Part shown: positions 32,999 to 46,761 of the stretch, piece after piece | Numbering within the stretch: position 1 is the stretch's first letter | Layout: every line of letters starts with the position of its first letter | NCBI GenBank assembly: GCA_965227295.1 | Contig: OZ245742.1 | Coordinates: 4,512,001-4,576,000, forward strand | From: Leptonemataceae bacterium | GTDB lineage: Bacteria > Spirochaetota > Leptospiria > Leptospirales > Leptonemataceae | Length of the DNA: 64,000 nucleotides | Direction: 5' to 3' | The notes under the pieces: model-generated | Seen by the model: the letters and a program-made list of their open reading frames with translations, nothing else | The model's database searches: none | Told to the model about the DNA's origin: nothing | Made by a program: the position numbers and the translations under genes

Positions 32999-33011
32999 AA
33001 TCAAGGTGTGT

Positions 33012-33746
33012 ACCCGTCTTATCGAAGCGATCGACGGCGCCGTGGCTACGCTTCAATTTACCGGAGCCTACGCCGAACGTCTCGGCCGCCTCTTCGAGGG
33101 GGCGATGACTCAGCAAGCGTCGAATTTCAAATCGGACCAGAAGTATATCCGGTTGAAGTGCGAAAGCCTGGATCAGCAGATCCGGCGGTTATACAGAGAA
33201 TACGCGGCCAGCGAACCAGCCGCCGCGCGGCAGATCATGGAAACCATCCGCGAAATGCAGGATGAAATCAAGACGCTGGAGAAAAAAGGCCAGAGCCTGC
33301 GCGCGGAAGACTTCGAGATCAACAACACCATCCTGCGATACATTGAAGAACTGCGGACGATTCCGGAAAAGTATCTGGCGGCGCGGACCACTGCGGAGAA
33401 AGCGAAACTTCTGCGAAACATGGTGCGCGCGATCTACGTGGACGGCGACGAGGTCATTTTCGACTGGCAAGAGCCGTATGCCTTCCTGGCGGACGAAGGC
33501 ATCTATCTGGCACTCACGAAACCGCGCGGGGGCTGGAAGAGCGGTGGTAAGCTCGCGGCGCAGCGCGCCGCCGCGAGCTTACCACCGCACACCCCGCAAA
33601 TGTCAGGGTGTTCGATTCCGTTTACTTCTGCGGAGCCAGCGAAACGCAGATCGAAAAAGCTGTCCGTGGAAGCGGAGATCGCCGCGCATATCCGGCTGAT
33701 GTTTCGGTTCTGGATGGCCGGCAAGAAACTTGCTGCCCACGGCTGA
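33012..33746 (+). pseudogene. 5'-truncated duplicate of serine recombinase 3' end with alternative (attP-type) C-terminus
   Basis: Identical to 27490-28113 reversed, then continues SAEPAKRRSKK..AAHG* after the CTCCGCAGAA core. Confidence 0.75.
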
Positions 33747-33954: not shown

Positions 33955-34379
33955 GTGGGGCGTGTGGCCACAGAGAACGGACGCGATCAGCGGAGCGATC
34001 ACGGAAAGAACTCACGGAAAGAACTCACGGAAAGAGGGCAAACATCACATGAGATATTGTTAGAGATTAAAGCACCAGGTGCCGCTGAAATCGAGTCCAC
34101 CTGGCAAGAACCCAACTGGATTATATATACGTCAATCGCGGCGACCAAAGACGTCCACGCTAACATATCTCGGCCGAACTCTAACCCCCGCCGCCCAGGT
34201 CGTGTCGTTTTTCTGGACAATCAAGGGAGTTCGAATTTCACGGCCAGCGCCGAGATCCCGCCGCGCACATCGTCGGTAATGCATCTGTGTATTTTGTGTG
34301 CGACGTCACGAAACCGCCGTACATAAATAGCGCGTGCAGGCGAAAACCCACCGGGTCTTCGCCTGCACGCGCGCGAACG

Positions 34380-34712
34380 TCACCAGCTCCAGCCGATTTC
34401 CTTTAACTGCTCCTTTTCTTCGGCTACGTCTTCTAACAGGTGGTCGGCGATCCGTTGCCAGTCCACTTTTTCGATGGCCCCCTGGAGTAACTCGCGCAAC
34501 AGTTCGGGAAGTTCGAGCCTGTGCAGATACTCCCGGTGACGATCTCTCAAGTGCGTGGCGAGTTGTTCTTCCTCGCCGTCACGAACACAATCGCAGGCAA
34601 TGCCCATAAACAAATCGTTGGTCGCCGTGTCTTTGTACATGCGCTCAGACACACACCACGTTTCGTAGTTGCCCCAACCGCAATAGTATTCGTTACTCCT
34701 TCCAGCCGTCAT
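34380..34712 (-). CDS. Hypothetical mobile-element protein (GWxNYETW motif, DUF7249-like), copy A
   Basis: YCGWGNYETWCV..VDWQRIA; third gene of overlapping operon. Confidence 0.6.
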   Translation of the reverse strand: MTAGRSNEYYCGWGNYETWCVSERMYKDTATNDLFMGIACDCVRDGEEEQLATHLRDRHREYLHRLELPELLRELLQGAIEKVDWQRIADHLLEDVAEEKEQLKEIGWSW

Positions 34713-34896
34713 CGCAGAGGACCTTCTCCGGCTCTTTGCCGATCAATTCCCGGAGCGGCGGACGCTTACGCAGGTCCGCCGCAATGAGATTGCGAATGTG
34801 CTGTGCCGTGTTCGCGAAGCGCGTGCGCAATTCGTAGCGCATGTCTTCGCTGATGCCGACCAGATACTGAACTGATTTTCTTCCCGGGTCTTTCAT
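34693..34896 (-). CDS. Small protein, possible ribbon-helix-helix, copy A
   Basis: MKDPGRKSVQYLVGISEDMRYELR..; SD AGGAGG; ATGA overlap. Confidence 0.45.
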   Translation of the reverse strand: MKDPGRKSVQYLVGISEDMRYELRTRFANTAQHIRNLIAADLRKRPPLRELIGKEPEKVLCDDGWKE

Positions 34897-35366
34897 GCTT
34901 CGGCCTCCTGGTCCAGGTCGTCGAAGAGCGGGTAGAAACGAGTGCTTTTCGGCGCTCCCAGGTAACACGCGCGGCGGAGTTCCTGGTCCCACTCGCAAGC
35001 GACCTGTTGAAGTTCGAGAAACACTTCTCGATTTACTTTTAAGAGGGAATTCAGCCGGGACGGCTGCGGTACCTTCACCGGGGTGTAGACCTCTTTGAAT
35101 TCACCGGTAGTTTCACTGGCGAGCAGAAACGGAAACCACTCATTGTCCGCCGTGATTTCGAACTGCATTTCGCGAGCGCACAGCCAGCGGCCGTTTGCTT
35201 GCTTGATGAACTGCGAAACGCCCAGGGCGGGGCGAGCGGTTGGACCCTCTCCCAGAAACTCGATGACGAGCAGCGGGTATTCTTCGTGCTCCACGCGGAT
35301 GGACTCGCACTGCTTGAGCGCTTCCATGCCTTCGTGACTGACGATGATTTTCTGAATTGTTTCCAT
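34893..35366 (-). CDS. Hypothetical mobile-element protein (DUF6908-like), copy A
   Basis: SD GGAGG; LVIEFLGEGP..EMQFEI resembles DUF6908 from recollection. Confidence 0.55.
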   Translation of the reverse strand: METIQKIIVSHEGMEALKQCESIRVEHEEYPLLVIEFLGEGPTARPALGVSQFIKQANGRWLCAREMQFEITADNEWFPFLLASETTGEFKEVYTPVKVPQPSRLNSLLKVNREVFLELQQVACEWDQELRRACYLGAPKSTRFYPLFDDLDQEAEA

Positions 35367-35527
35367 GTGATAGATTCCTCCGGGGGAAGGCTAAACACAC
35401 GGCGGCATACTGCAAGTTTAAACTCAAGGAAAGTTAATTTTTTGCTGACAAAAGCCCGGAGACATGCTAACATCACGAAATGTTACTCTAGTAAATGTCG
35501 ATGCACGAGGTCGCCCGCTTCTCTCTT

Positions 35528-35600
35528 TCAGGGGTGCGGGATTCGAACCCACTTCCCGGGGGACACAGTCCCGGATGTTAGCCGCATACACCAACCCCTA
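35528..35600 (-). tRNA. trnH: tRNA-His(GUG), array 1
   Basis: Loop CT-GTG-TC; GTTCGAATCC; one anticodon-stem mismatch. Confidence 0.75.
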
Positions 35601-35605
35601 TTGAA

Positions 35606-35679
35606 AATCCCGGCGAGGACTCGAACCCCGATCGACGGGGATAGAAGCCCCGTGCTTTTTCCCGTTAAGCTACCGGGAT
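35606..35679 (-). tRNA. trnR: tRNA-Arg(UCU), array 1
   Basis: CGGGG-CTTCTAT-CCCCG anticodon arm. Confidence 0.85.
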
Positions 35680-35682
35680 ACT

Positions 35683-35755
35683 TCGAAGCGGCTGGAATCG
35701 AACCAACACCAACGGCATATCAGAGCGTCGTTCTCAACCGTTAAACTACGCTTCG
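35683..35755 (-). tRNA. trnI: tRNA-Ile(GAU), array 1
   Basis: Loop CT-GAT-AT; acceptor CGAAGCG/CGCTTCG. Confidence 0.8.
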
Positions 35756-35759
35756 TATG

Positions 35760-35830
35760 CACCACGTAGGGGAGTCGAACCCCTGCTACTCGATCGACAA
35801 TCGGGCGTTCTACCGTTAAACTAATGCGGC
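35760..35830 (-). tRNA. trnD: tRNA-Asp(GUC), array 1
   Basis: Loop TT-GTC-GA; G73. Confidence 0.8.
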
Positions 35831-35836
35831 AAACTG

Positions 35837-35910
35837 TAGGGCCCGCGGGACTCGAACCCGCAATCTCCAGATTCGTAATCTGATGCCTTGATCCATTTGG
35901 CCAGGGCCCT
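35837..35910 (-). tRNA. trnR: tRNA-Arg(ACG), array 1
   Basis: TCAGA-TTACGAA-TCTGG. Confidence 0.9.
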
Positions 35911-35913
35911 GTG

Positions 35914-35987
35914 TTGGACTTGCAGGACTCGAACCTGCGGCCTTCCGCCTCGGAAGCGGGTGCTCTTTCCCTCTGAGCTAAAGTCCA
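35914..35987 (-). tRNA. trnR: tRNA-Arg(CCG), array 1
   Basis: CCCGC-TTCCGAG-GCGGA. Confidence 0.85.
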
Positions 35988-35990
35988 GTG

Positions 35991-36061
35991 TGGAGCCGGT
36001 GGGAATCGAACCCACATCTGTTGCTTGCAAAACAAAGATTCTCCCGTTAAACTACGGCCCC
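35991..36061 (-). tRNA. trnA: tRNA-Ala(UGC), array 1
   Basis: Loop TT-TGC-AA; G3:U70 identity pair. Confidence 0.85.
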
Positions 36062-36064
36062 GTG

Positions 36065-36138
36065 TACGGGCTGCTGGATTCGAACCAGCGATCTCCTGTT
36101 TGTAAGACAGGCGTTCTGACCTGCTAAACTAAGCCCGT
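36065..36138 (-). tRNA. trnV: tRNA-Val(UAC), array 1
   Basis: CCTGT-CTTACAA-ACAGG. Confidence 0.9.
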
Positions 36139-36141
36139 GTG

Positions 36142-36213
36142 TTGCGGCGAAAGGAATTGAACCTCCGTAGGACGGGTTATGAGCCCGTTGCATCGCCACT
36201 ATGCTACACCGCA
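36142..36213 (-). tRNA. trnM: tRNA-Met(CAU), initiator-like, array 1
   Basis: ACGGG-CTCATAA-CCCGT with three consecutive G-C pairs; TTCAA T-loop. Confidence 0.85.
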
Positions 36214-36219
36214 ATGTTT

Positions 36220-36294
36220 TGCCCGGTGCATGGATTCGAACCTGCAACCAGCGGTTTACAAAACCGCCGCTCTAACCATTGGAGCTAACCGGGC
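36220..36294 (-). tRNA. trnT: tRNA-Thr(UGU), array 1
   Basis: GCGGT-TTTGTAA-ACCGC. Confidence 0.9.
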
Positions 36295-36297
36295 GTG

Positions 36298-36369
36298 TGC
36301 ATCAGCAGGGAATCGAACCCTGATGATCTGCTTGGAAGACAGACATGTTGGCCGTTACATCACTGATGC
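36298..36369 (-). tRNA. trnG: tRNA-Gly(UCC), array 1
   Basis: TCTGT-CTTCCAA-GCAGA. Confidence 0.85.
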
Positions 36370-36373
36370 GTAT

Positions 36374-36447
36374 TCGTCGGGTTCGGGATCGAACCGAATT
36401 CTCTCGCTTTTCAGGCGAGCGCTCATGACCACACCTGCTCCCCGACG
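36374..36447 (-). tRNA. trnF: tRNA-Phe(GAA), array 1
   Basis: CTCGC-CTGAAAA-GCGAG. Confidence 0.8.
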
Positions 36448-36504
36448 TTCGTCTTGTTCTTCTTAAAGTCACTTTCGCTCATATTTACTCCTTAGTGCGA
36501 AATG

Positions 36505-36576
36505 TGGGTCCGGTGGGATTCGAACCCACGGCCATCCGATTAAAAGTCGGATGCTCTACCCCCGAGCTCCGGACCC
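36505..36576 (-). tRNA. trnK: tRNA-Lys(UUU), array 1
   Basis: TCCGA-CTTTTAA-TCGGA. Confidence 0.9.
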
Positions 36577-36577
36577 G

Positions 36578-36616
36578 CTATTCTCTAAATGTCTTCTTGT
36601 CATCTTCGCTCTTCAT
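36578..36616 (-). CDS. Mini-ORF MKSEDDKKTFRE between tRNA-Gly and tRNA-Lys
   Basis: SD AGGAG; identical peptide in array 2 with synonymous ACA/ACG change. Confidence 0.4.
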   Translation of the reverse strand: MKSEDDKKTFRE

Positions 36617-36641
36617 GGCGTATCTCCTGTTGCTTATGATG

Positions 36642-36714
36642 TGCACCGCAAGAGACTCGAACTCTTCCCTGCTGCATGGCACACAGCTATGCTTGCCACT
36701 AACACCAGCGATGC
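36642..36714 (-). tRNA. trnG: tRNA-Gly(GCC), array 1
   Basis: GCTGT-GTGCCAT-GCAGC. Confidence 0.8.
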
Positions 36715-36723
36715 GTTTAAACG

Positions 36724-36757
36724 AAAAAACCCTCCAGGGAGTCGGCCGGGGAGGGTT
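36724..36757 (-). terminator. Attenuator terminator before 14-tRNA cluster, array 1
   Basis: AACCCTCC..GGAGGGTT stem plus U-tract. Confidence 0.8.
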
Positions 36758-36784
36758 CTTCATGAATGCGTTTGCAGATTCTTC

Positions 36785-36901
36785 TCAGCAACGCATGCGC
36801 AGAACTCCTCCGGCGATCCGGCCGTCCTTATGGCCCGCATCGATCCGCATCCCGATAAATCGGGCGGTTCTCACAACCGTTGCTGTTACTGTTAAGCTCA
36901 T
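36785..36901 (-). CDS. Leader peptide MSLTVTATVVRTARFIGMRIDAGHKDGRIAGGVLRMRC (array 1)
   Basis: 38 codons; residues 4-33 are exclusively amino acids of the downstream tRNAs; 3' part complementary to terminator 5' arm. Confidence 0.75.
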   Translation of the reverse strand: MSLTVTATVVRTARFIGMRIDAGHKDGRIAGGVLRMRC

Positions 36902-36951
36902 GATAGAATACTCAGACGAATCCCTTGTTAAATTTCTTATAAAAATATCTT

Positions 36952-37023
36952 TGCCGACGCAGGGAATCGAAACCTGATTACCGCAGTGAAAGTGCGAGGT
37001 CCTTGCCTTTAGACGACGCCGGC
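36952..37023 (-). tRNA. trnE: tRNA-Glu(UUC), array 1
   Basis: TCGCA-CTTTCAC-TGCGG; T-stem has one mismatch in this copy. Confidence 0.75.
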
Positions 37024-37119
37024 GATTTGAGTTGAAACGTAGTTAGGTCCACGTTCCCGTTCTCGCGGCATCGCTCCAGCTGACACGTATGTACGTCCTG
37101 CGCGGTTCATTATACTATG

Positions 37120-37190
37120 AGACATGGGTGGGATTCGAACCCACGTAAACGGCTTTGCAGACCGCCCGCTGGCCTCTCGCGCACCATGTC
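37120..37190 (-). tRNA. trnC: tRNA-Cys(GCA), array 1
   Basis: GCGGT-CTGCAAA-GCCGT; U73. Confidence 0.8.
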
Positions 37191-37285
37191 GGGTTTACTC
37201 TGGCTTGCGGCGGTCGGTAACATCGTTCTCTGTCTTCCATATCTCCCTCATAACACTTGAAAAATAAGCAAAATGCCCATAAACG

Positions 37286-37319
37286 AAAAAAGGCGAGCCG
37301 TTGATCCGGGCTCGCCTTT
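37286..37319 (-). terminator. Attenuator terminator before Cys/Glu tRNAs, array 1
   Basis: AAAGGCGAGCC..GGCTCGCCTTT plus U-tract. Confidence 0.8.
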
Positions 37320-37343
37320 CGCATCCAGCAGGTTACACTGAAT

Positions 37344-37451
37344 CTAAGACGAGCGCATGACTCCCTGAAACACATCACGCTCACAACCCGCATGAATCAT
37401 GCCGGCCTTCGCGAGGTCTCGTTCCGTTCTATGTTGGCGCTTCGGCGACAT
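37344..37451 (-). CDS. Leader peptide MSPKRQHRTERDLAKAGMIHAGCERDVFQGVMRSS (array 1)
   Basis: 35 codons downstream of a TTGACG -35 box; GCTCGTCTT at 3' end pairs with terminator 5' arm. Confidence 0.55.
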   Translation of the reverse strand: MSPKRQHRTERDLAKAGMIHAGCERDVFQGVMRSS

Positions 37452-37531
37452 TCCGTTTCCTGAATACTTACTTGGTATTCGACGTCAACAACTTCATAAA
37501 GATTTAAATATTTTTTTCATGGAACTCAATG

Positions 37532-37604
37532 TTCCGGGAGATGGATTCGAACCATCAACCCCCGACTTCAAAGGCCGGTGTTCTACCCGTTGAACTACCC
37601 CGGA
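37532..37604 (-). tRNA. trnQ: tRNA-Gln(UUG), array 1
   Basis: CCGGC-CTTTGAA-GTCGG; U1-A72. Confidence 0.85.
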
Positions 37605-37612
37605 ATGAGTTG

Positions 37613-37684
37613 CACCGGAGGCAGGACTCGAACCTGCATAGAACGCATTAACATTGCGTCGCCTTACCATTAGGCTACTCCGGT
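37613..37684 (-). tRNA. trnN: tRNA-Asn(GUU), array 1
   Basis: ACGCA-ATGTTAA-TGCGT; G73. Confidence 0.85.
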
Positions 37685-37688
37685 ATTC

Positions 37689-37766
37689 TGGCAGAGGGAA
37701 CAGGATTCGAACCTGTGAACATCGGATTTGGAGTCCGACAGCTTGGACCGCTCGACTCATCCCTCT
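37689..37766 (-). tRNA. trnW: tRNA-Trp(CCA), array 1
   Basis: TCGGA-CTCCAAA-TCCGA; encoded GCCA end. Confidence 0.85.
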
Positions 37767-37769
37767 ATG

Positions 37770-37842
37770 TCGGCGTGGTGGGACTTGAACCCACGACCCC
37801 CGGTTCCCGAAACCGGTGCTCTACACCCTGAGCTATACGCCG
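37770..37842 (-). tRNA. trnP: tRNA-Pro(CGG), array 1
   Basis: CCGGT-TTCGGGA-ACCGG; C1-G72, A73. Confidence 0.9.
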
Positions 37843-37848
37843 GATAAT

Positions 37849-37882
37849 AAAAAACCCCCTCAAGCTTCCGCCGGAGGGGGTT
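37849..37882 (-). terminator. Attenuator terminator before Pro/Trp/Asn/Gln tRNAs, array 1
   Basis: AACCCCCTC..GAGGGGGTT plus U-tract, ending 7 nt before tRNA-Pro. Confidence 0.85.
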
Positions 37883-37911
37883 CTCGCGCAAACGCGCTGT
37901 TGCTCAGAGCA

Positions 37912-37983
37912 CTACACGACCACCTCCAGGCAGATGCCGGGATTCTGTTGGGGCCAGTTGCTCTGTGGGAAAAACATGCTCAT
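37912..37983 (-). CDS. Leader peptide MSMFFPQSNWPQQNPGICLEVVV (array 1)
   Basis: P/Q/N/W make up 9 of 10 consecutive codons; in-frame 6-nt indel relative to array 2. Confidence 0.8.
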   Translation of the reverse strand: MSMFFPQSNWPQQNPGICLEVVV

Positions 37984-38087
37984 CACGTTTACCTGAAGTT
38001 AAGAGACGACGGTTTTCGAGAAATCCTTAACGAAAATATATTTTTTGGAACGAAAGCTTCGCTTTGCCTCGTCTCATCTACCGTATC

Positions 38088-38156
38088 ATGAACGGTATGT
38101 TACTATCATCGCTGTATCTTCTCAGCTCCGGCGGCATGCGGGAGGCGGCGATGTAG
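38088..38156 (+). CDS. Leader peptide MNGMLLSSLYLLSSGGMREAAM (array 1)
   Basis: Ten consecutive L/S/Y codons, each a different codon; precedes Tyr/Ser/Leu tRNAs. Confidence 0.82.
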   Translation: MNGMLLSSLYLLSSGGMREAAM

Positions 38157-38184
38157 TACGCGCAGACAGTTTTCTGTCTTCGAG

Positions 38185-38224
38185 AAGCCCCTCCCGGTGA
38201 ACCCGCGAGGGGCTTTTTGTTTTT
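38185..38224 (+). terminator. Attenuator terminator before Tyr/Ser/Leu tRNAs, array 1
   Basis: AAGCCCCTC..GAGGGGCTT plus TTTGTTTTT. Confidence 0.85.
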
Positions 38225-38228
38225 AAAC

Positions 38229-38315
38229 GCGCTGCTTTCCTCCTGCCGGTCTGTAAAGCCGGGGTCGTTAAACGAGGAGGTCGGGAGACGAGAGGTTCAA
38301 ATCCTCGGCAGCGCA
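38229..38315 (+). tRNA. trnY: Atypical tRNA-Tyr(GUA)-like gene lacking canonical D-arm, array 1
   Basis: Acceptor GCGCTGC/GCAGCGC, CCGGT-CTGTAAA-GCCGG, GTTCAAATCC; only 10 nt between acceptor and anticodon stems. Confidence 0.65.
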
Positions 38316-38319
38316 TACT

Positions 38320-38403
38320 GGATAGATGCCCGAGTGGTAAGGGACCCGTTTCGAAAACGGAGGTCGGCGGTTCGTCGCGTGGGTTCGATTCCTACTCTAT
38401 CCG
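38320..38403 (+). tRNA. trnS: tRNA-Ser(CGA), array 1
   Basis: Loop TT-CGA-AA; long variable arm; G73. Confidence 0.85.
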
Positions 38404-38409
38404 CATTAC

Positions 38410-38493
38410 GGAGGGATGACCGAGTGGTAAGGTATCCGGTTGGAAGCCGGTGGTCATCGATGAGATGCGAAGGTTCGATTCCTTCTCCCTCCG
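38410..38493 (+). tRNA. trnS: tRNA-Ser(GGA), array 1
   Basis: Loop TT-GGA-AG; long variable arm; G73. Confidence 0.85.
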
Positions 38494-38499
38494 AGAAAT

Positions 38500-38584
38500 G
38501 GAACAGTGGCCGAGAGGTAAGGCAGCGGTCCGCTAAACCGTGGTCGTCGTAACAGACGCGGAGGTTCGATTCCTCCCTGTTCCG
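38500..38584 (+). tRNA. trnS: tRNA-Ser(GCU), array 1
   Basis: GCGGT-CCGCTAA-ACCGT (C33); long variable arm. Confidence 0.85.
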
Positions 38585-38587
38585 CAG

Positions 38588-38662
38588 CGAGCGATAGCCC
38601 AATCAGGCAGAGGCAGTCGACTTAAAATCGGCAGAGTGCGGGTTCGATTCCCGCTCGCTCAA
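38588..38662 (+). tRNA. trnL: tRNA-Leu(UAA), short variable loop, array 1
   Basis: GTCGA-CTTAAAA-TCGGC. Confidence 0.85.
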
Positions 38663-38665
38663 AAC

Positions 38666-38738
38666 GCATCCGTAGCCCAACGGTAGAGGCACCAGGTCGA
38701 GAGCCTGGTCAGTGCAGGTTCGAATCCGGCCGGATGCA
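38666..38738 (+). tRNA. trnL: tRNA-Leu(GAG), short variable loop, array 1
   Basis: CCAGG-TCGAGAG-CCTGG (C33). Confidence 0.75.
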
Positions 38739-38741
38739 CAC

Positions 38742-38814
38742 GGGGACGTAGCCCAACGGCAGAGGCAGCACGCTCAGAACGTGTCCAGTGTGAGTTCGAA
38801 TCTCGCCGCCCCCA
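38742..38814 (+). tRNA. trnL: tRNA-Leu(CAG), short variable loop, array 1
   Basis: GCACG-CTCAGAA-CGTGT. Confidence 0.85.
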
Positions 38815-38985
38815 TAGAGTCTCCACTGAAGAGATTTGCGACCTCGTGCATCGACATTTACTAGAGTAACATTTCGTGATGTTAGCATGTCTCCGGGCTT
38901 TTGTCAGCAAAAAATTAACTTTCCTTGAGTTTAAACTTGCAGTATGCCGCCGTGTGTTTAGCCTTCCCCCGGAGGAATCTATCAC

Positions 38986-39459
38986 ATGGAAACAATTCAG
39001 AAAATCATCGTCAGTCACGAAGGCATGGAAGCGCTCAAGCAGTGCGAGTCCATCCGCGTGGAGCACGAAGAATACCCGCTGCTCGTCATCGAGTTTCTGG
39101 GAGAGGGTCCAACCGCTCGCCCCGCCCTGGGCGTTTCGCAGTTCATCAAGCAAGCAAACGGCCGCTGGCTGTGCGCTCGCGAAATGCAGTTCGAAATCAC
39201 GGCGGACAATGAGTGGTTTCCGTTTCTGCTCGCCAGTGAAACTACCGGTGAATTCAAAGAGGTCTACACCCCGGTGAAGGTACCGCAGCCGTCCCGGCTG
39301 AATTCCCTCTTAAAAGTAAATCGAGAAGTGTTTCTCGAACTTCAACAGGTCGCTTGCGAGTGGGACCAGGAACTCCGCCGCGCGTGTTACCTGGGAGCGC
39401 CGAAAAGCACTCGTTTCTACCCGCTCTTCGACGACCTGGACCAGGAGGCCGAAGCATGA
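38986..39459 (+). CDS. Hypothetical mobile-element protein (DUF6908-like), copy B
   Basis: Identical to 34893-35366. Confidence 0.55.
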   Translation: METIQKIIVSHEGMEALKQCESIRVEHEEYPLLVIEFLGEGPTARPALGVSQFIKQANGRWLCAREMQFEITADNEWFPFLLASETTGEFKEVYTPVKVPQPSRLNSLLKVNREVFLELQQVACEWDQELRRACYLGAPKSTRFYPLFDDLDQEAEA

Positions 39460-39659
39460 AAGACCCGGGAAGAAAATCAGTTCAGTATCTGGTCGGCATC
39501 AGCGAAGACATGCGCTACGAATTGCGCACGCGCTTCGCGAACACGGCACAGCACATTCGCAATCTCATTGCGGCGGACCTGCGTAAGCGTCCGCCGCTCC
39601 GGGAATTGATCGGCAAAGAGCCGGAGAAGGTCCTCTGCGATGACGGCTGGAAGGAGTAA
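39456..39659 (+). CDS. Small protein, possible ribbon-helix-helix, copy B
   Basis: Identical to 34693-34896. Confidence 0.45.
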   Translation: MKDPGRKSVQYLVGISEDMRYELRTRFANTAQHIRNLIAADLRKRPPLRELIGKEPEKVLCDDGWKE

Positions 39660-39972
39660 CGAATACTATTGCGGTTGGGGCAACTACGAAACGTGGTGTG
39701 TGTCTGAGCGCATGTACAAAGACACGGCGACCAACGATTTGTTTATGGGCATTGCCTGCGATTGTGTTCGTGACGGCGAGGAAGAACAACTCGCCACGCA
39801 CTTGAGAGATCGTCACCGGGAGTATCTGCACAGGCTCGAACTTCCCGAACTGTTGCGCGAGTTACTCCAGGGGGCCATCGAAAAAGTGGACTGGCAACGG
39901 ATCGCCGACCACCTGTTAGAAGACGTAGCCGAAGAAAAGGAGCAGTTAAAGGAAATCGGCTGGAGCTGGTGA
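39640..39972 (+). CDS. Hypothetical protein (DUF7249-like), copy B
   Basis: Identical to 34380-34712. Confidence 0.6.
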   Translation: MTAGRSNEYYCGWGNYETWCVSERMYKDTATNDLFMGIACDCVRDGEEEQLATHLRDRHREYLHRLELPELLRELLQGAIEKVDWQRIADHLLEDVAEEKEQLKEIGWSW

Positions 39973-39982
39973 CGTTCGCGCG

Positions 39983-40028
39983 CGTGCAGGCGAAGACCCG
40001 GTGGGTTTTCGCCTGCACGCGCTATTTA
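39983..40028 (+). terminator. Long hairpin after 3-gene operon (mirror copy near 34325-34370)
   Basis: GCGTGCAGGCGAAGACCC..GGGTTTTCGCCTGCACGC followed by TATTTAT. Confidence 0.6.
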
Positions 40029-40316
40029 TGTACGGCGGTTTCGTGACGTCGCACACAAAATACACAGATGCATTACCGACGATGTGCGCGGCGGGATCTC
40101 GGCGCTGGCCGTGAAATTCGAACTCCCTTGATTGTCCAGAAAAACGACACGACCTGGGCGGCGGGGGTTAGAGTTCGGCCGAGATATGTTAGCGTGGACG
40201 TCTTTGGTCGCCGCGATTGACGTATATATAATCCAGTTGGGTTCTTGCCAGGTGGACTCGATTTCAGCGGCACCTGGTGCTTTAATCTCTAACAATATCT
40301 CATGTGATGTTTGCCC

Positions 40317-41328
40317 TCTTTCCGTGAGTTCTTTCCGTGAGTTCTTTCCGTGAGTTCTTTCCGTGAGTTCTTTCCGTGAGTTCTTTCCGTGAGTTCTTTC
40401 CGTGAGTTCTTTCCGTGAGTTCTTTCCGTGAGTTCTTTCCGTGAGTTCTTTCCGTGAGTTCTTTCCGTGAGTTCTTTCCGTGAGTTCTTTCCGTGAGTTC
40501 TTTCCGTGAGTTCTTTCCGTGAGTTCTTTCCGTGAGTTCTTTCCGTGAGTTCTTTCCGTGAGTTCTTTCCGTGAGTTCTTTCCGTGAGTTCTTTCCGTGA
40601 GTTCTTTCCGTGAGTTCTTTCCGTGAGTTCTTTCCGTGAGTTCTTTCCGTGAGTTCTTTCCGTGAGTTCTTTCCGTGAGTTCTTTCCGTGAGTTCTTTCC
40701 GTGAGTTCTTTCCGTGAGTTCTTTCCGTGAGTTCTTTCCGTGAGTTCTTTCCGTGAGTTCTTTCCGTGAGTTCTTTCCGTGAGTTCTTTCCGTGAGTTCT
40801 TTCCGTGAGTTCTTTCCGTGAGTTCTTTCCGTGAGTTCTTTCCGTGAGTTCTTTCCGTGAGTTCTTTCCGTGAGTTCTTTCCGTGAGTTCTTTCCGTGAG
40901 TTCTTTCCGTGAGTTCTTTCCGTGAGTTCTTTCCGTGAGTTCTTTCCGTGAGTTCTTTCCGTGAGTTCTTTCCGTGAGTTCTTTCCGTGAGTTCTTTCCG
41001 TGAGTTCTTTCCGTGAGTTCTTTCCGTGAGTTCTTTCCGTGAGTTCTTTCCGTGAGTTCTTTCCGTGAGTTCTTTCCGTGAGTTCTTTCCGTGAGTTCTT
41101 TCCGTGAGTTCTTTCCGTGAGTTCTTTCCGTGAGTTCTTTCCGTGAGTTCTTTCCGTGAGTTCTTTCCGTGAGTTCTTTCCGTGAGTTCTTTCCGTGAGT
41201 TCTTTCCGTGAGTTCTTTCCGTGAGTTCTTTCCGTGAGTTCTTTCCGTGAGTTCTTTCCGTGAGTTCTTTCCGTGAGTTCTTTCCGTGAGTTCTTTCCGT
41301 GAGTTCTTTCCGTGAGTTCTTTCCGTGA
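40317..41328. repeat. Perfect 13-bp tandem repeat (TCTTTCCGTGAGT), about 78 copies
   Basis: Directly visible; 1012 nt / 13; no spacers. Confidence 0.97.
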
Positions 41329-41356: not shown

Positions 41357-43340
41357 GTCGCGGTAGAACGGCCGGTTGCCCGGCCGCCCCCGCACAGATC
41401 CCGGCGTGCGGTATTCTCGCACCGGGCTCTTCGAAAGCACTCGCTTCCACATAAAGTCAATTCAGAGTAAGTCGCAACTGAGATACTGGTCGTTCCATGA
41501 TGCGCGGTTTTTCGATCCGGTAGTGCGCCATCAGATCCCTCAGCCCCTGCCAGTCCAGACTCCGGCGCTGACTGCGCCGATTGAGCCACTTGTACAGATT
41601 CATTTCCACCTGATAGTAGAAGCTTCGTATACTCTTGTAGTTGCATTGGACGCCATAATAGTTATAGTATCCACGCAGCCGGGAGTTCAGAAGATTGAAG
41701 AACCTGCGCATGGGTAGATGCCGATTCGCTTTAATCCACTGCTTCACATTCTGGATCGACGCATGCAATCGCTTTGGAGCGGTGCGACGCGGAACCCACC
41801 AGAACCCCTTTCGAGAACGAGCCCAGCGGTATTCAAAGCCTAGAAATACGAACGCCTCACGCCCGGTATTGAACTTCGCGCGGAAGCCCGGGCGCTCGAA
41901 ACTTTTCACTCCTGACTTTTCCGGCGCCAGTTCCAGACCAAACTTTCGCAAACGTTTTCCAAGCGTCGCATAGAATTTCAGCGCATCGTCTTTGGATTCA
42001 AAGGCGCAAACAAAATCGTCCGCGTATCGACACATATAGGCCGGTCTCTTGCAGTGCTTCTTCACCACTTTCTCGAACCAGAGGTCCAGTACGTAATGAA
42101 GATAGACGTTCGCCAGAACCGGACTGATCACGCCGCCTTGAGGAGTCCCAGCGGTCGGGCGCGAGACCTGACCGTTTACCTCCAGCACGCCTGCTTTCAG
42201 CCACTTGCGAATCAGACCGAGAAAGGCCCGATCATCGATTCGTTGCTCCAGCATTCGCATCAACCAATCATGGTCAATGTTGTCGAAGAAACCCTTGATG
42301 TCGGCTTCCACAATCCAGCCGAGCTTCCCCGGACTCAAAGTTGAACTCAGAGTCTTCGAAGCCTCACGCGGACCGGTGTTCGGCCGATAACCATACGAAC
42401 ACGACAGGAAGTCTTGCTCATAGATCGCTTCAAGGATACGCGTCGCGCATGTTTGTACCAGTTTGTCTTCGAGGGCCGGCAATCCAAGCGGACGTTGTTT
42501 TCCGTCCGCTTTCGGGATAAAGACCCTGCGAATCAGTTTTGTTCGGTATCGTTTCTGTTTTAAGCGTTCCACCAGATCCCCGACATTTTCCGTAAGGTTC
42601 GCTTCGTAGTCGCGAAACGTTTCACGGTCCACGCCCGGAGCCGCCCGGCGATTCATTCCTGCGAACGAATCTTCGAGATTCATCTGGTTGAGCATCCCAT
42701 ACAGATTACGAAACAGATGTTTCTTACTCCTCCTCGCTTTATTTGCTATTGCCCGTAGTGAGGTTTGCATCAGTTGTTCCGATCCTGCCGTCCGGCTGAT
42801 GTTGACTCTGCGAGCTGCGTACTTTCGTCAGCCCCTTCCCCGATCATCGCGCATCGCACGCGAAGACCGAACCCGTCGAAACTCCATTCGAGTTTCATTC
42901 GATTCTGTGGACGGCTCTCCCGCCCTCTGAGTACTATGGGCTGATCCGACTCCCCGTTGATCATCATTCTTCCTTGTTCATTCGGTCAGAATTACCTTCG
43001 CTATCGTCGAAGGAACCAACGGGGTCTCCCGGGTTCCACGATGTTTCTCTGCATACATGCCGCGCTCAAGCGACCCCGACAGACCTCCAGAATCTCGCTA
43101 AAACGATTCCTTTGTGCTGGTTTCCATCTGACCAATGATGTCACCGTCTGCATCTATGGCATTTTACGAGGCTCAACAGCTTCCGGGAGTGTGGACTCCC
43201 CTACGGCCTGCATGCTTCCCTGTGTACGCTTCGTGTGGCGGTTACCCGCTTCCACGCAACACTCGGTAGAAGTTGTTCGCTAAACTTTACTTCATATGGA
43301 CTTTCACCTTATCAGAAACATCGGGCTTTGCCCGGCGCAC
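41357..43340 (-). mobile_element. Group II intron, 1984 nt
   Basis: 5' GTGCG at 43340; domain V GAGCCCGGTGCGAGAATACCGCACGCCGGGATC; 3' ..CTACCGCGAC; exons rejoin to TGGCCA|CAGAGAAC seen intact at 33965-33978. Confidence 0.95.
41457..42770 (-). CDS. ltrA: Group II intron reverse transcriptase/maturase without endonuclease domain
   Basis: IPKADGKQRPLG, SYGYRP, EADIKGFFD, PQGG, RYADD, FLGF, domain X LRGYYNYY; no C-terminal HNH. Confidence 0.95.
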   Translation of the reverse strand: MQTSLRAIANKARRSKKHLFRNLYGMLNQMNLEDSFAGMNRRAAPGVDRETFRDYEANLTENVGDLVERLKQKRYRTKLIRRVFIPKADGKQRPLGLPALEDKLVQTCATRILEAIYEQDFLSCSYGYRPNTGPREASKTLSSTLSPGKLGWIVEADIKGFFDNIDHDWLMRMLEQRIDDRAFLGLIRKWLKAGVLEVNGQVSRPTAGTPQGGVISPVLANVYLHYVLDLWFEKVVKKHCKRPAYMCRYADDFVCAFESKDDALKFYATLGKRLRKFGLELAPEKSGVKSFERPGFRAKFNTGREAFVFLGFEYRWARSRKGFWWVPRRTAPKRLHASIQNVKQWIKANRHLPMRRFFNLLNSRLRGYYNYYGVQCNYKSIRSFYYQVEMNLYKWLNRRSQRRSLDWQGLRDLMAHYRIEKPRIMERPVSQLRLTLN

Positions 43341-43958: not shown

Positions 43959-44033
43959 TCGAGCGAGCGGGAATCGAACCCGCACTCTGCCGATTTTAAG
44001 TCGACTGCCTCTGCCTGATTGGGCTATCGCTCG
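43959..44033 (-). tRNA. trnL: tRNA-Leu(UAA), array 2
   Basis: Near-identical to 38588-38662. Confidence 0.85.
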
Positions 44034-44036
44034 CTG

Positions 44037-44121
44037 CGGAACAGGGAGGAATCGAACCTCCGCGTCTGTTACGACGACCACGGTTTAGCGGACCGCTGCC
44101 TTACCTCTCGGCCACTGTTCC
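44037..44121 (-). tRNA. trnS: tRNA-Ser(GCU), array 2
   Basis: Matches 38500-38584. Confidence 0.85.
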
Positions 44122-44127
44122 AATTTC

Positions 44128-44212
44128 CGGAGGGAGAAGGAATCGAACCTTCGCGCCTGTTAAGACGACCGCCGGCTTCCAACCGGATACCTTACCACTC
44201 GGTCATCCCTCC
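44128..44212 (-). tRNA. trnS: tRNA-Ser(GGA), array 2
   Basis: Matches 38410-38493 with different variable arm. Confidence 0.85.
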
Positions 44213-44218
44213 ACGCTG

Positions 44219-44302
44219 CGGATAGAGTAGGAATCGAACCCACGCGACGAACCGCCGACCTCCGTTTTCGAAACGGGTCCCTTACCACTCGGGCATCTAT
44301 CC
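44219..44302 (-). tRNA. trnS: tRNA-Ser(CGA), array 2
   Basis: Matches 38320-38403. Confidence 0.85.
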
Positions 44303-44306
44303 AGTA

Positions 44307-44443
44307 TGCGCTGCCGAGGATTTGAACCTCTCGTCACCCGACCTCCTCGTTTAACGAGTAAACTGTACCTTGCTGCGCAAGCCTTGACTTACTACCGCCT
44401 TTCAGTTGCTGGCGTTTACAGACCGGCAGGAGGAAAGCAGCGC
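44307..44443 (-). pseudogene. trnY: Atypical tRNA-Tyr(GUA) interrupted by ~55-nt insertion, array 2
   Basis: Matches 38229-38315 except extra sequence ~44358-44413 at 3' side of anticodon stem. Confidence 0.7.
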
Positions 44444-44447
44444 GTTT

Positions 44448-44487
44448 AAAAAGAAAAAGCCCCTCGCGGGTTTACCGGGAGGGGCTT
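44448..44487 (-). terminator. Attenuator terminator (Tyr/Ser/Leu cluster), array 2
   Basis: Same stem as 38185-38224; changes fall outside the closing GC stem. Confidence 0.85.
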
Positions 44488-44515
44488 CTCGAAGACAGAG
44501 AACTGTCCGCGCGTA

Positions 44516-44584
44516 CTACATCGCCGCCTCCCGCATGCCGCCGGAGCTGAGAAGATACAGCGATGATAGTAACATACCGTTCAT
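44516..44584 (-). CDS. Leader peptide MNGMLLSSLYLLSSGGMREAAM (array 2)
   Basis: Identical to 38088-38156. Confidence 0.82.
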   Translation of the reverse strand: MNGMLLSSLYLLSSGGMREAAM

Positions 44585-44688
44585 GATACGGTACATGAGA
44601 CGAGGCAAAGCGAAGCTTTCGTTCCAAAAAATATATTTTCGTTAAGAATTTCTCGAAAACCGTCGTCTCTTAACTTCAGGTAAACGTG

Positions 44689-44754
44689 ATGCACTTCCCA
44701 CAGAGCAACTGGCCCCAACAGAATCCCGGCATCTGCCTGGAGGTGGTCGTGTAG
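44689..44754 (+). CDS. Leader peptide MHFPQSNWPQQNPGICLEVVV (array 2)
   Basis: AGGT SD-like sequence upstream; P/Q/N/W run conserved. Confidence 0.8.
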   Translation: MHFPQSNWPQQNPGICLEVVV

Positions 44755-44783
44755 TGCTCTGAGCAACAGCGCGTTTGCGCGAG

Positions 44784-44817
44784 AACCCCCTCCGGCGGAA
44801 GCTTGAGGGGGTTTTTT
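44784..44817 (+). terminator. Attenuator terminator (Pro/Trp/Asn/Gln cluster), array 2
   Basis: AACCCCCTC..GAGGGGGTTTTTT. Confidence 0.85.
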
Positions 44818-44823
44818 ATTATC

Positions 44824-44896
44824 CGGCGTGTAGCTCAGGGTGTAGAGCACCGGTATCGGGAACCGGGGGTCGTGGGTTCAAGTCCCACCACGCCGA
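44824..44896 (+). tRNA. trnP: tRNA-Pro(CGG), array 2
   Basis: CCGGT-ATCGGGA-ACCGG. Confidence 0.85.
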
Positions 44897-44899
44897 CAT

Positions 44900-45076
44900 A
44901 GAGGGATGAGTCGAGCGGTCCAGGCTGTCGGACTCCAAATCCGATGTTCACAGGTTTTTGTGCATGGATGCACTTATGCCGCGGAGGACAGGAAGTCCGG
45001 GAGCGGCCGAATCCTGAAAGAGGAAGATGCTACGCATCTTTCATCTTACTGACGCGCTGCGCTTGTCCCTCTGCCA
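44900..45076 (+). pseudogene. trnW: tRNA-Trp(CCA) with two insertions (44957-45007 in T-loop; 45017-45065 in T-stem 3' side), array 2
   Basis: Alignment to intact copy 37689-37766. Confidence 0.85.
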
Positions 45077-45080
45077 GAAT

Positions 45081-45152
45081 ACCGGAGTAGCCTAATGGTA
45101 AGGCGACGCACTGTTAATGCGTTCTATGCAGGTTCGAGTCCTGCCTCCGGTG
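45081..45152 (+). tRNA. trnN: tRNA-Asn(GUU), array 2
   Basis: ACGCA-CTGTTAA-TGCGT. Confidence 0.9.
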
Positions 45153-45160
45153 CAACTCAT

Positions 45161-45294
45161 TCCGGGGTAGTTCAACGGGTAGAACACCGGCCTTTGAAGT
45201 CGGGGGCGCAAATAGACTTTTGCCTTATGGCAAAAGTCGGCGGTTCGGAGTTGTGCGGCAACGCACAACTCCGGGTCCTCACCATCTCCCGGAG
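45161..45294 (+). pseudogene. trnQ: tRNA-Gln(UUG) with T-arm 5' half replaced by 75-nt double-hairpin insert (45207-45281), array 2
   Basis: Alignment to 37532-37604. Confidence 0.8.
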
Positions 45295-45374
45295 CATTGA
45301 GTTCTATGAAAAAAATATTTAAATCTTTATGAAGTTGTTGACGTCGAATACCGAGTAAGTAATCAGGAAACGGA

Positions 45375-45482
45375 ATGTCGCAGAAGCGCCTACAGACAAC
45401 GGAACGAGACCTCGCGAAGGCCGGCATGATTCATGCGGGTTGTGAGCGTGATGTGTTTCAGGGAGTCATGCGCTCGTCTTAG
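45375..45482 (+). CDS. Leader peptide MSQKRLQTTERDLAKAGMIHAGCERDVFQGVMRSS (array 2)
   Basis: Same length as array 1 copy; residues 9-35 identical. Confidence 0.55.
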   Translation: MSQKRLQTTERDLAKAGMIHAGCERDVFQGVMRSS

Positions 45483-45506
45483 ATTCAGTGTAACCTGCTG
45501 GATGCG

Positions 45507-45540
45507 AAAGGCGAGCCCGGATCAACGGCTCGCCTTTTTT
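45507..45540 (+). terminator. Attenuator terminator (Cys/Glu cluster), array 2
   Basis: AAAGGCGAGCC..GGCTCGCCTTTTTT. Confidence 0.8.
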
Positions 45541-45635
45541 CGTTTATGGGCATTTTGCTTATTTTTCAAGTGTTATGAGGGAGATATGGAAGACAGAGAA
45601 CGATGTTACCGACCGCCGCAAGCCAGAGTAAACCC

Positions 45636-45758
45636 GACATGGTGCGCGAGAGGCCAGCGGGCGGTCTGCAAAGCCGTTTAACGTGGGTTTGTGTGCAGGG
45701 ATGCACTTATGCCGCGAAGGACAGGATGTCCGGGAGCGGCCGAATCCCACCCATGTCT
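45636..45758 (+). pseudogene. trnC: tRNA-Cys(GCA) with 51-nt T-loop insertion (45690-45740), array 2
   Basis: GGTT[insert]CGAATCC versus 37120-37190. Confidence 0.85.
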
Positions 45759-45854
45759 CATAGTACAATGAACCGCGCAGGACGTACATATGTATCAGCC
45801 GGAGCGATGCCGCGAGAGCGGGAACGTGGATCAAGCTACGTTTCAACTCAAATC

Positions 45855-45926
45855 GCCGGCGTCGTCTAACGGCAAGGACGCTGCACTTTCACTGCGGTAA
45901 TCGGGGTTCGATTCCCCGCGTCGGCA
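45855..45926 (+). tRNA. trnE: tRNA-Glu(UUC), array 2
   Basis: Loop CT-TTC-AC; intact T-arm CGGGG-TTCGATT-CCCCG. Confidence 0.85.
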
Positions 45927-45976
45927 AAGGTATTTTCATAAGAAATTTAACAATGGATTCGTCTGAGTATTCTATC

Positions 45977-46093
45977 ATGAGCTTAACAGTAACAGCAACG
46001 GTTGTAAGGACCGCCCGATTTATCGGGATGCGGATCGATGCGGGCCATAAGGACGGCCGGATCGCCGGAGGAGTTCTGCGCATGCGTTGCTGA
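45977..46093 (+). CDS. Leader peptide MSLTVTATVVRTARFIGMRIDAGHKDGRIAGGVLRMRC (array 2)
   Basis: Same peptide as array 1; differences seen (GTG/GTA, AGA/AGG) are synonymous. Confidence 0.78.
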   Translation: MSLTVTATVVRTARFIGMRIDAGHKDGRIAGGVLRMRC

Positions 46094-46120
46094 GAAGAAT
46101 CTACAGACGCATTCATGAAG

Positions 46121-46154
46121 AACCCTCCCCGGCCGACGCCCTGGAGGGTTTTTT
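46121..46154 (+). terminator. Attenuator terminator (large cluster), array 2
   Basis: AACCCTCC..GGAGGGTTTTTT. Confidence 0.8.
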
Positions 46155-46163
46155 CGTTTATAC

Positions 46164-46236
46164 GCATCGCTGGTGTCAGTGGCAAGCATAGCTGTGTGCC
46201 ATGCAGCAGGGAAGAGTTCGAGTCTCTTGCGGTGCA
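46164..46236 (+). tRNA. trnG: tRNA-Gly(GCC), array 2
   Basis: Matches 36642-36714. Confidence 0.8.
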
Positions 46237-46301
46237 CATTACAGAAAACAGGAGGTACGCCATGAAGAGCGAAGATGACAAGAAGACGTTTAGAGAATAG
46301 C

Positions 46302-46419
46302 GGGTCCGGAGCTCGGGGGTAGAGCATCCGACTTTTAATCGGATGGCGATCGGTTGAGTGCTTCGCACTCTCATCTTACTCCCGCCTTTCAGTTGGGGGT
46401 TCGAATCCCACCGGACCCA
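46302..46419 (+). pseudogene. trnK: tRNA-Lys(UUU) with ~46-nt insertion at variable loop/T-stem (~46348-46394), array 2
   Basis: Alignment to 36505-36576. Confidence 0.8.
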
Positions 46420-46477
46420 CATTTCAAGTAGCGAGGTTAATATGAACGAAAGTGACTTTAAGAATAATAAGACGGAA

Positions 46478-46550
46478 CGTCGGGGAGCAGGTGTGGTCAT
46501 TGCATCCGGTTGAAGCCCGGAGGAATTCGGTTCGATCCCGAGCCCGACGA
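46478..46550 (+). tRNA. trnF: tRNA-Phe(GAA), array 2
   Basis: TCCGG-TTGAAGC-CCGGA. Confidence 0.8.
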
Positions 46551-46554
46551 ATAC

Positions 46555-46677
46555 GCATCAGTGATGTAACGGTCAACATGTCTGTCTTCCAAACAGATCA
46601 TCAGGGTTTTTGGCCATGGATGGCCTTATGCCGCGGAGGACAGGAGGTCCGAGAGCGGCCGATTCCCTGCTGATGCA
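46555..46677 (+). pseudogene. trnG: tRNA-Gly(UCC) with 51-nt T-loop insertion (46609-46659), array 2
   Basis: GGTT[insert]CGATTCC versus 36298-36369. Confidence 0.85.
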
Positions 46678-46680
46678 CAC

Positions 46681-46755: not shown

Positions 46756-46761
46756 AAACAT

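Follow-up and report, generated by a model that had tools for sequence, protein, structure and literature searches.

A predicted leader-peptide attenuator before tRNA genes on an acquired island of a Leptonemataceae genome, with candidate counterparts in other bacterial lineages

Why would a short ORF packed with leucine, serine and tyrosine codons, followed by a terminator, stand directly in front of a block of tRNA genes? The question is raised by a 64,000-nt stretch of Leptonemataceae DNA (hereafter the window), a piece of bacterial chromosome with a GC content of ~62% in which an island of ~50% GC lies at roughly 28-49 kb. The island adjoins a host tRNA-Ser(cga) gene (27409) and a recombinase-domain ORF, and contains two inverted copies of one divergent tRNA array. 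Array 1 (35528-38814) contains 26 ARAGORN-called tRNA genes plus a Tyr-like RNA, and it is an L-array by its density, its more than 20 supernumerary tRNA genes and its location on acquired DNA, namely the low-GC island beside tRNA-Ser 27409 and the recombinase ORF. A 390-nt gap, in which the leader A region lies, separates its two divergent operons. The tRNA and tRNA-like genes are arranged as follows:

37842->35528, minus strand: array 1 operon of 20 tRNA genes (Pro, Trp, Asn, Gln ... His)
38229-38814, plus strand: second operon of array 1
38229-38315, plus strand: Tyr-anticodon tRNA-like RNA, non-canonical, with an 8-bp acceptor stem, a 4-bp T stem and no ordinary D arm
38320-38814, plus strand: tRNA-Ser(cga, gga, gct) and tRNA-Leu(taa, gag, cag), the genes proposed to be controlled (ARAGORN, Rfam)
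43959-47530: array 2, a degraded copy with insertions in several genes

The initial annotation of this DNA had placed Tyr, Ser and Leu tRNA genes downstream of the short ORF. ARAGORN recovered the three Ser and three Leu genes with the expected anticodons, whereas the 'Tyr' gene, called by neither ARAGORN nor the Rfam tRNA model, turned out to be only a non-canonical tRNA-like RNA whose sole Rfam match is a weak one to tRNA-Sec (21.6 bits, E=0.25). This RNA has a CUGUAAA loop, and 4 of its 28 pairs are compensatory relative to its homologue (4733-4819) in a related array, L011, from a Leptospirales MAG; a 6-bp helix around the anticodon arm lies at the D-arm position. The array-type tRNA-Leu genes (38588-38814) measure 73-75 nt and are without the long variable arm of ordinary bacterial tRNA-Leu, a short form also found in other arrays (L002, L005, L060 and others). 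The Leu-rich leaders described below argue that these short tRNAs still decode leucine.

The features of the leader A region, all on the plus strand apart from the array 2 copy, are these:

38088-38156, plus strand: leader ORF A, MNGMLLSSLYLLSSGGMREAAM plus stop, with ATG at 38088, TAG at 38154-38156 and 22 codons before the stop
38100-38129, plus strand: regulatory run, codons 5-14, made up of ten different codons (five Leu, four Ser, one Tyr)
44516-44584, minus strand: identical copy of leader ORF A in the degraded inverted array 2 (alignment)
38101-38158, plus strand: predicted anti-antiterminator (1:2), in which 38101-38115 pairs with 38145-38158 and an inner stem joins 38126-38129 to 38141-38144
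38133-38203, plus strand: predicted antiterminator (2:3), in which 38133-38149 pairs with 38187-38203, enclosing the spacer hairpin
38164-38179, plus strand: spacer hairpin between stop codon and terminator, with one compensatory pair relative to the related arrays, where its sequence differs
38181-38224, plus strand: intrinsic terminator, with a hairpin at 38181-38219 (-25.9 kcal/mol) and a T tract

Direct reading and a script both reproduced the run of ten different Leu, Ser and Tyr codons that had first drawn attention to the ORF, and alignment bore out identity with the array 2 copy (44584->44516) over the entire ORF. The run holds codons cognate to all seven downstream anticodons, while CTA and TCA, both conserved in leader A, have no cognate tRNA in the array. 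How unusual is such a run? In 200 block shuffles, L/S/Y runs of at least 10 codons occurred 0.005 times per window. Taken by itself, however, the run is weaker evidence than this permutation test, proposed at the outset, suggests: a second, unrelated 10-codon L/S/Y run is present in the real window at 42722-42751, on the strand opposite a group II intron ORF. The weight of the evidence is in its position, its conservation and the parallel modules rather than in the run itself.

Terminator A ends 5-10 nt upstream of the first downstream RNA gene, which leaves no room for a promoter there. The leader folds better than 200 of 200 shuffled versions (z=-4.3); our terminator scanner had missed the hairpins of these leaders because their loops exceed 8 nt. 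The complementarity noted earlier between 38139-38149 and 38187-38196 is real, and forms the core of the longer predicted antiterminator. To model folding during transcription, we cut the RNA before the terminator 3' arm, and we represented a ribosome by masking the RNA up to its leading edge. A simulated stall at any of codons 5-13 produced the 2:3 helix (-28 to -32 kcal/mol, for RNA without the terminator 3' arm), a ribosome at the stop codon left no 2:3 helix (-4.4 kcal/mol), and RNA carrying no ribosome adopted the 1:2 helix. In these simulations the productive stall sites coincide with the Leu/Ser/Tyr run. The L011 leader and leader B, described below, gave the same fold pattern as leader A, and stall simulations of modules B, C and D behaved like those of A.

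In full-length equilibrium folds the antiterminator never forms and the terminator wins whatever is masked, so that antitermination would have to be kinetic. Comparison with L011 and L045, a second related array from an unclassified MAG, reveals one compensatory pair (GC<->AU) and two wobble changes in the 1:2 helix; the paired bases of the antiterminator are invariant across copies, and the 2:3 helix therefore draws no support from covariation. In the folds of truncated RNA, the 1:2 and 2:3 helices are predicted to be mutually exclusive, with ribosome position deciding between them in silico.

From sequence and folding models, we propose, with a probability of roughly 0.7, that the leader A region is a ribosome-mediated transcription attenuator of the trp/his/leu-leader type that gates tRNA genes. 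We infer leader translation, stalling, read-through and the physiological trigger as the following course of events. Transcription would begin upstream of 38088 and the 22-codon leader would be translated. With charged Leu, Ser and Tyr tRNAs plentiful, the ribosome would reach the stop codon and cover 38139-38160, allowing the terminator hairpin to fold, and the transcript would end before the tRNA genes. Slow decoding at any of the ten Leu/Ser/Tyr codons would stall the ribosome on the run, so that 38133-38149 stayed accessible and could pair with the terminator 5' arm at 38187-38203; with this antiterminator formed, RNA polymerase would read into the Tyr-like/Ser/Leu operon. If no ribosome were present, 38101-38115 would pair with 38145-38158 and termination would win again. 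The outcome would be negative feedback, by which an acquired accessory tRNA set could be made on demand when cognate decoding capacity drops. The core of this proposal, a translated leader whose Leu/Ser/Tyr codons gate a terminator before tRNA genes, is well supported by the fold simulations, by conservation and by parallels elsewhere.

Conservation was assessed in species-representative genomes, which we scanned with a pattern combining the T loop and the Ser D loop. Only two of the resulting 59 loci, L011 and L045, carry a homologous array together with the leader. Their leader A homologues, which are 80% identical over 148 nt, read MNGKLLSSLSLYGSSNMREVAM and MNGKLLSSLSLYSSSNMREVAM, respectively. 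Both share start, frame, length, stop and hairpins with the window, and the frame is kept in 4 of 4 copies. In L011 and L045 the sequence of the unpaired central part of the run differs, yet its coding for Leu, Ser and Tyr is retained (the three lineages have 10, 10 and 11 codons of this kind), which argues for selection on codon meaning rather than on RNA pairing or peptide sequence. The sequence elements and their conservation are thus observed, and the loss of L/S/Y enrichment in homologous leaders, named in the initial annotation as evidence that would count against it, was not seen: the L011 and L045 leaders stay rich in these codons. Within the present genome, array 2 is decaying, so the leader element may not be under current selection there.

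The related arrays also differ from the window in layout. In L011 and L045, the Pro-Trp-Asn-Gln block and its leader precede the Ser/Leu operon and share its strand, the reverse of the block's orientation in the window (L011 4150-5347 compared with window 37531-38814), suggesting that leader-plus-tRNA blocks move as modules. L011 also contains, at 2340-2612 on the minus strand, a tRNA-like gene apparently interrupted by an insert of ~200 nt, with no Rfam match at gathering score; the insert is possibly an intron.

The non-repeating codons had suggested sensing at the level of isoacceptors rather than amino acids, and this part of the earlier interpretation did not become established. Given the peptide, the probability that all ten codons are distinct is P=0.026, and that of a codon cognate to each of the 7 downstream anticodons is P=0.10. 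In the relatives some codons recur (TCA twice in each, CTA twice in L011 and TTA twice in L045) and CTG for Leu(cag) is missing, so that their runs cover 6 of the 7 downstream anticodons; this weakens the inference drawn from ten different codons. A codon-level test was uninformative and was set aside: tRNAs of the array can decode five of the six Leu codons and five of the six Ser codons, and 8 readable codons out of 10 is what chance would give. The ten non-repeating codons of the window copy could still poll individual isoacceptors.

How translation of leader A would begin was also considered. As stated in the initial annotation, no Shine-Dalgarno sequence precedes the window ATG; the mRNA may, as suggested there, be leaderless. 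A second ATG, absent in L011 and L045, would fit a leaderless start. L011 has a weak AAGG, and the actinomycete analogues described below have strong Shine-Dalgarno motifs. Promoter scans for leader A in the window and in L011 found no convincing promoter or transcription start, and the regions upstream of leader A barely align with L011. Leaders A and B both end in a Shine-Dalgarno-like GGAGG (within 38139-38156 and 37929->37912, respectively), followed 5 nt later by a start codon and at once by a stop (ATG-TAG in A, GTG-TAG in B). This start-stop mini-ORF is not kept in L011 leader B, which has GTA, and is probably a by-product of GGAGG pairing with the terminator's CCUCC.

Does leader A stand alone? 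The minus-strand operon of array 1 contains three further ORF-terminator units:

37912-37983, minus strand: leader ORF B, MSMFFPQSNWPQQNPGICLEVVV, with the run PQSNWPQQNP at 37968->37939
37852-37883, minus strand: module B terminator, 3 nt before tRNA-Pro
37344-37451, minus strand: leader-like ORF C, 35 codons, with an AGGA Shine-Dalgarno motif and then a terminator at 37319->37289
36785-36901, minus strand: leader ORF D, 38 codons, then a terminator at 36758->36727 and 14 tRNA genes

The run of leader B matches the next four tRNAs, Pro, Trp, Asn and Gln, and 9 of its 22 residues fall in {P,W,N,Q} (binomial P=2.3e-3; window null 4.8e-3). The Pro(cgg) of the array does not decode the Pro codons of leader B (CCA, CCC). 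Array 2 retains ORF B despite a 6-nt in-frame indel, and leaders A and B are weak paralogues (63% identity over 93 nt). We discarded a scenario in which fusion with the Ser/Leu operon was followed by a gain of Tyr/Ser/Leu codons in leader B of L011, since leader B of the window also has S, S and L. In leader D, 33 of 37 residues are among the 11 amino acids of the downstream tRNAs (binomial P=1.3e-4; window null 2.3e-3), and a codon is present for each of the 14 downstream tRNAs; the D leaders of L011 and L045 have 84-92% cognate residues by hand count, though only IDAGHK is conserved. ORF C has no cognate enrichment, either for the proximal tRNAs (3/34 residues) or for all downstream ones (27/34; null 0.18). 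Besides A, the array thus holds at least two modules, B and D, whose leader matches its tRNAs.

Two still smaller ORFs within the minus-strand operon have strong Shine-Dalgarno sequences: MKSEDDKKTFRE (36616->36578), which ends 1 nt before tRNA-Lys, and MSESDFKK... (36482->36423), which runs into tRNA-Phe. Neither is followed by a terminator, and each has codons for its next tRNA. Both are kept in array 2 and in L011 (MKNESDKVS and MSESDFRK..., at about 2925->2897 and from 2795 on the minus strand).

The island around the arrays is rich in repeats. Two perfect (100%) inverted repeats of 1516 nt (33999-35514 and 38838-40353), carrying a DUF6908 gene at each end, flank array 1 exactly, and a second perfect (100%) inverted pair of 623 nt occupies 27490-28112 and 33013-33635; this layout may be invertible or transposon-like. 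A perfect tandem repeat at 40317-41328, with 77.8 copies (100% identical) of the 13-nt unit TCTTTCCGTGAGT, could be a satellite or an assembly artefact. Between the arrays lies a group II intron (41457-43304, minus strand), with Rfam domains D1-D4 at 43063-43304 and a reverse transcriptase/maturase ORF at 41457-42770. A 246-aa ORF that flanks the arrays (33006-33746, 27520-28119) matches no Pfam family and shares 50% protein identity with an ORF beside the L011 array (6971-7558), and array and flanking ORF may travel together. In array 2, an insert of 46 nt interrupts tRNA-Lys, one of ~57 nt interrupts the Tyr-like RNA, and many tRNA genes have short inserts; a 109-nt repeat family with 5 copies was noted with the degraded array copies. 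In L045 (4600-6100), hairpins of ~25 nt stand in place of the T loops of several tRNAs. Short inserts in degraded arrays could reflect decay or a targeted element.

We then asked whether leaders matched to tRNAs occur beyond this lineage. A terminator-like hairpin lies at most 120 nt upstream of a tRNA in 25 of the 59 scan loci, and in most of these 25 a short ORF just before the hairpin has a composition that matches the following tRNAs. In all 18 Kitasatospora loci, Gln-Ser-(Ser)-Tyr is preceded by an ORF of 21-26 codons that follows a Shine-Dalgarno motif and has a core of the type QSYQRSSSSQ; in Dactylosporangium loci, the leaders ahead of Trp-Leu-(Ala)-Leu-Ser-Arg are rich in L, S, R, W and A. 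In L047, a Bacteroidota MAG, MYICSVNTQNLYSLLLSSYSKLNGKRSPMD precedes Leu-Leu-Ser-Tyr, and repeats among its segments allow 1:2, 2:3 and 3:4 pairing, the textbook 1-2-3-4 design. Matches in L010, L038, L049 and L051 add Bacteroidota, Gemmatimonadota, Myxococcota and Acidobacteriota. Accessory clusters outside the lineage of the window thus have analogous short ORFs, mostly with a terminator-like hairpin. One Kitasatospora locus departs from the common pattern: upstream of 4950 in L024 (Kitasatospora arboriphila), the first tRNA is called as Arg(gcg) rather than Gln(ctg) and the leader core is SYRR rather than SYQR. This may be natural co-variation of leader and tRNA; the case is ambiguous, as R also occupies the second Q site in other loci.

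Does this matching exceed chance? When 8 leader families were set against 8 tRNA sets, the resulting matrix was diagonal-dominant. Of 40320 permutations, no more than 4 equal the true pairing, and these 4 are ties from identical tRNA sets (Fisher combined P=6e-15). An unbiased pass over the 87 clusters with testable tRNA sets gave a best sense ORF at P<0.01 in 30 clusters and at P<0.001 in 16, compared with none at either threshold among antisense controls in the same clusters; many of the 30 are homologues within two genera, and they amount to about seven independent lineages. The objective ORF rule took a wrong-frame ORF in L007, L022 and L059, where Shine-Dalgarno-led ORFs are visible. Three Streptacidiphilus loci have no matching ORF, and several large arrays offered nothing testable. 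BLAST of 37400-38900 against plasmids and phages returned only short, tRNA-level matches. Two plasmid matches were considered and rejected, namely a small Curtobacterium cluster and a 28-gene array of Mycolicibacterium alvei with a different gene order, which has by eye no leader or terminator upstream and shares with the window only k-mers that are generic T-arm words; this array was left out of the 87-cluster test because its tRNA set is too broad.

These parallels lead us to a broader reading, which we favour by a little over even odds: leader-peptide attenuators may control accessory tRNA clusters in at least six bacterial phyla, the composition of each leader serving as a 'barcode' of the tRNAs behind it, such that each block would be transcribed only when its own codons falter. 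If true, this would constitute a direct feedback loop from tRNA supply to tRNA synthesis and could provide an on-demand backup against tRNA depletion or cleavage.

Could the leaders respond to something less specific than their own codons? They might be general sensors of translation stress, in which any slowing of elongation, whether by antibiotics, global starvation or an arrest peptide, causes read-through and Leu/Ser/Tyr is not the specific input. PMC8421152 describes induction of long Anabaena tRNA arrays by translation inhibitors, module C has no cognate enrichment, and leaders A and B resemble each other in their conserved C-terminal ends (MREAAM/MREVAM, LEVVV/REVVV), all of which would suit such a sensor. 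It would, however, need no match between leader and tRNAs, yet the match holds both by module and by lineage. Moreover, the C-terminal codons overlap the RNA arms of region 2, and this accounts for their conservation with no need for an arrest peptide. We therefore consider a general sensor unlikely, and prefer cognate codons as the input of the proposed attenuator.

Alternatively, the ORF might be incidental to an RNA-only switch, in which the leader RNA binds a factor such as uncharged tRNA, a protein or a small molecule. In its favour, the leader RNA is highly structured, and a Shine-Dalgarno sequence is missing from the window copy. Against it, Rfam 15 has no family, T-box or other, on these leaders, either in the window (gathering score; E<=1 in 36700-38330) or in seven related loci; the ORF retains its frame, start and stop even as its codons are exchanged among those for Leu, Ser and Tyr; and the actinomycete analogues carry strong ribosome binding motifs. 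These observations make an RNA-only switch very improbable.

We give similarly little credence to a chance ORF beside an ordinary terminator or insulator that separates two divergent tRNA operons. Hairpins ahead of tRNA genes can be the terminators of upstream genes, and the second L/S/Y run in the window shows that such runs do arise by chance. However, the region lies between divergent arrays, with no upstream gene on the same strand to terminate; the terminator leaves no promoter space before the tRNAs; L011 and L045 retain the ORF with changed codons; and enrichment appears in sense ORFs (30/87) as against antisense ones (0/87). Finally, although LLSSLYLLSS is hydrophobic and short hydrophobic peptides occur in mobile elements, a functional micropeptide (a membrane peptide or small toxin) with no link to tRNA control has hardly any probability, as residue order varies between relatives with only amino-acid class kept, and the sister leaders differ strongly in composition, each tracking its own tRNA set.

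Bacterial tRNA genes are textbook cases of promoter-level growth-rate and stringent control. Decoding feedback onto tRNA transcription would, if true, add a new regulatory layer, explain how acquired tRNA arrays can stay silent yet useful, and allow the tRNAs of each block to be predicted from sequence, even unusual ones like the short tRNA-Leu and the Tyr-like RNA. Culturable strains of Kitasatospora and Dactylosporangium carry analogous modules that have strong ribosome binding sites.

How, then, does the proposed attenuator compare with known systems? A comparable array is the trn operon of Anabaena sp. PCC 7120, which is likewise an L-array, a dense supernumerary set of tRNA genes on horizontally acquired DNA. 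According to PMC8421152 and PMC10272220, it stays silent under standard culture conditions and responds to impaired translation by induction, and its promoter is controlled through direct repeats and the TrcR repressor, unlike the leader-peptide attenuation proposed here; the terms attenuat-, leader, terminator and uORF do not appear in either paper. By analogy, silence together with induction on impaired translation would fit an attenuator that opens on ribosome stalling. Among short-ORF attenuators, the mycobacterial polycysteine ORFs, presented in bioRxiv 10.1101/834739 as leaderless, amino-acid-responsive attenuators of operon genes, resemble the leaders here in being short, amino-acid-rich and possibly on leaderless mRNAs, and differ in that they use one amino acid and precede protein-coding operons. 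T-box riboswitches also report tRNA status through a terminator/antiterminator decision in a 5' leader; they bind uncharged tRNA directly, without translation, and control protein genes, and the T-box covariance model has no match in the window at gathering score and none at E<=1 in 36700-38330.

A further likeness is found in the leader-peptide attenuator pheM-pheST, which controls phenylalanyl-tRNA synthetase. There too, a translation component is regulated by the supply of cognate charged tRNA; in that case the product is a synthetase protein and one amino acid is sensed, whereas here the product would be tRNA. To our knowledge, all described ribosome-mediated attenuators control genes for amino-acid biosynthesis, transport or synthetases, and only tRNA and tRNA-like genes lie downstream here. 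We found no description of leader-peptide attenuation of tRNA genes or arrays in the full-text literature searched, with subscription journals mostly outside that set.

Set beside the ribosome-mediated mechanism as summarised in PMC1183508, the proposed attenuator shares its architecture and departs from it in its target. Like the trpL, hisL, leuL, thrL, pheL and ilv systems, it has a short, presumably translated leader with a regulatory codon run, a predicted choice among the exclusive hairpins 1:2, 2:3 and 3:4, an intrinsic terminator ahead of the first gene to be controlled, and a stop codon placed so that a terminating ribosome would mask region 2. Unlike in those systems, three amino acids are combined in the run (as many as 11 in module D), mirroring the downstream tRNAs; several modules are chained within one array; and the genes controlled would be tRNA genes, not biosynthetic enzymes. 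The proposed system would work like a classical attenuator, but without the usual feature of protein-gene control.
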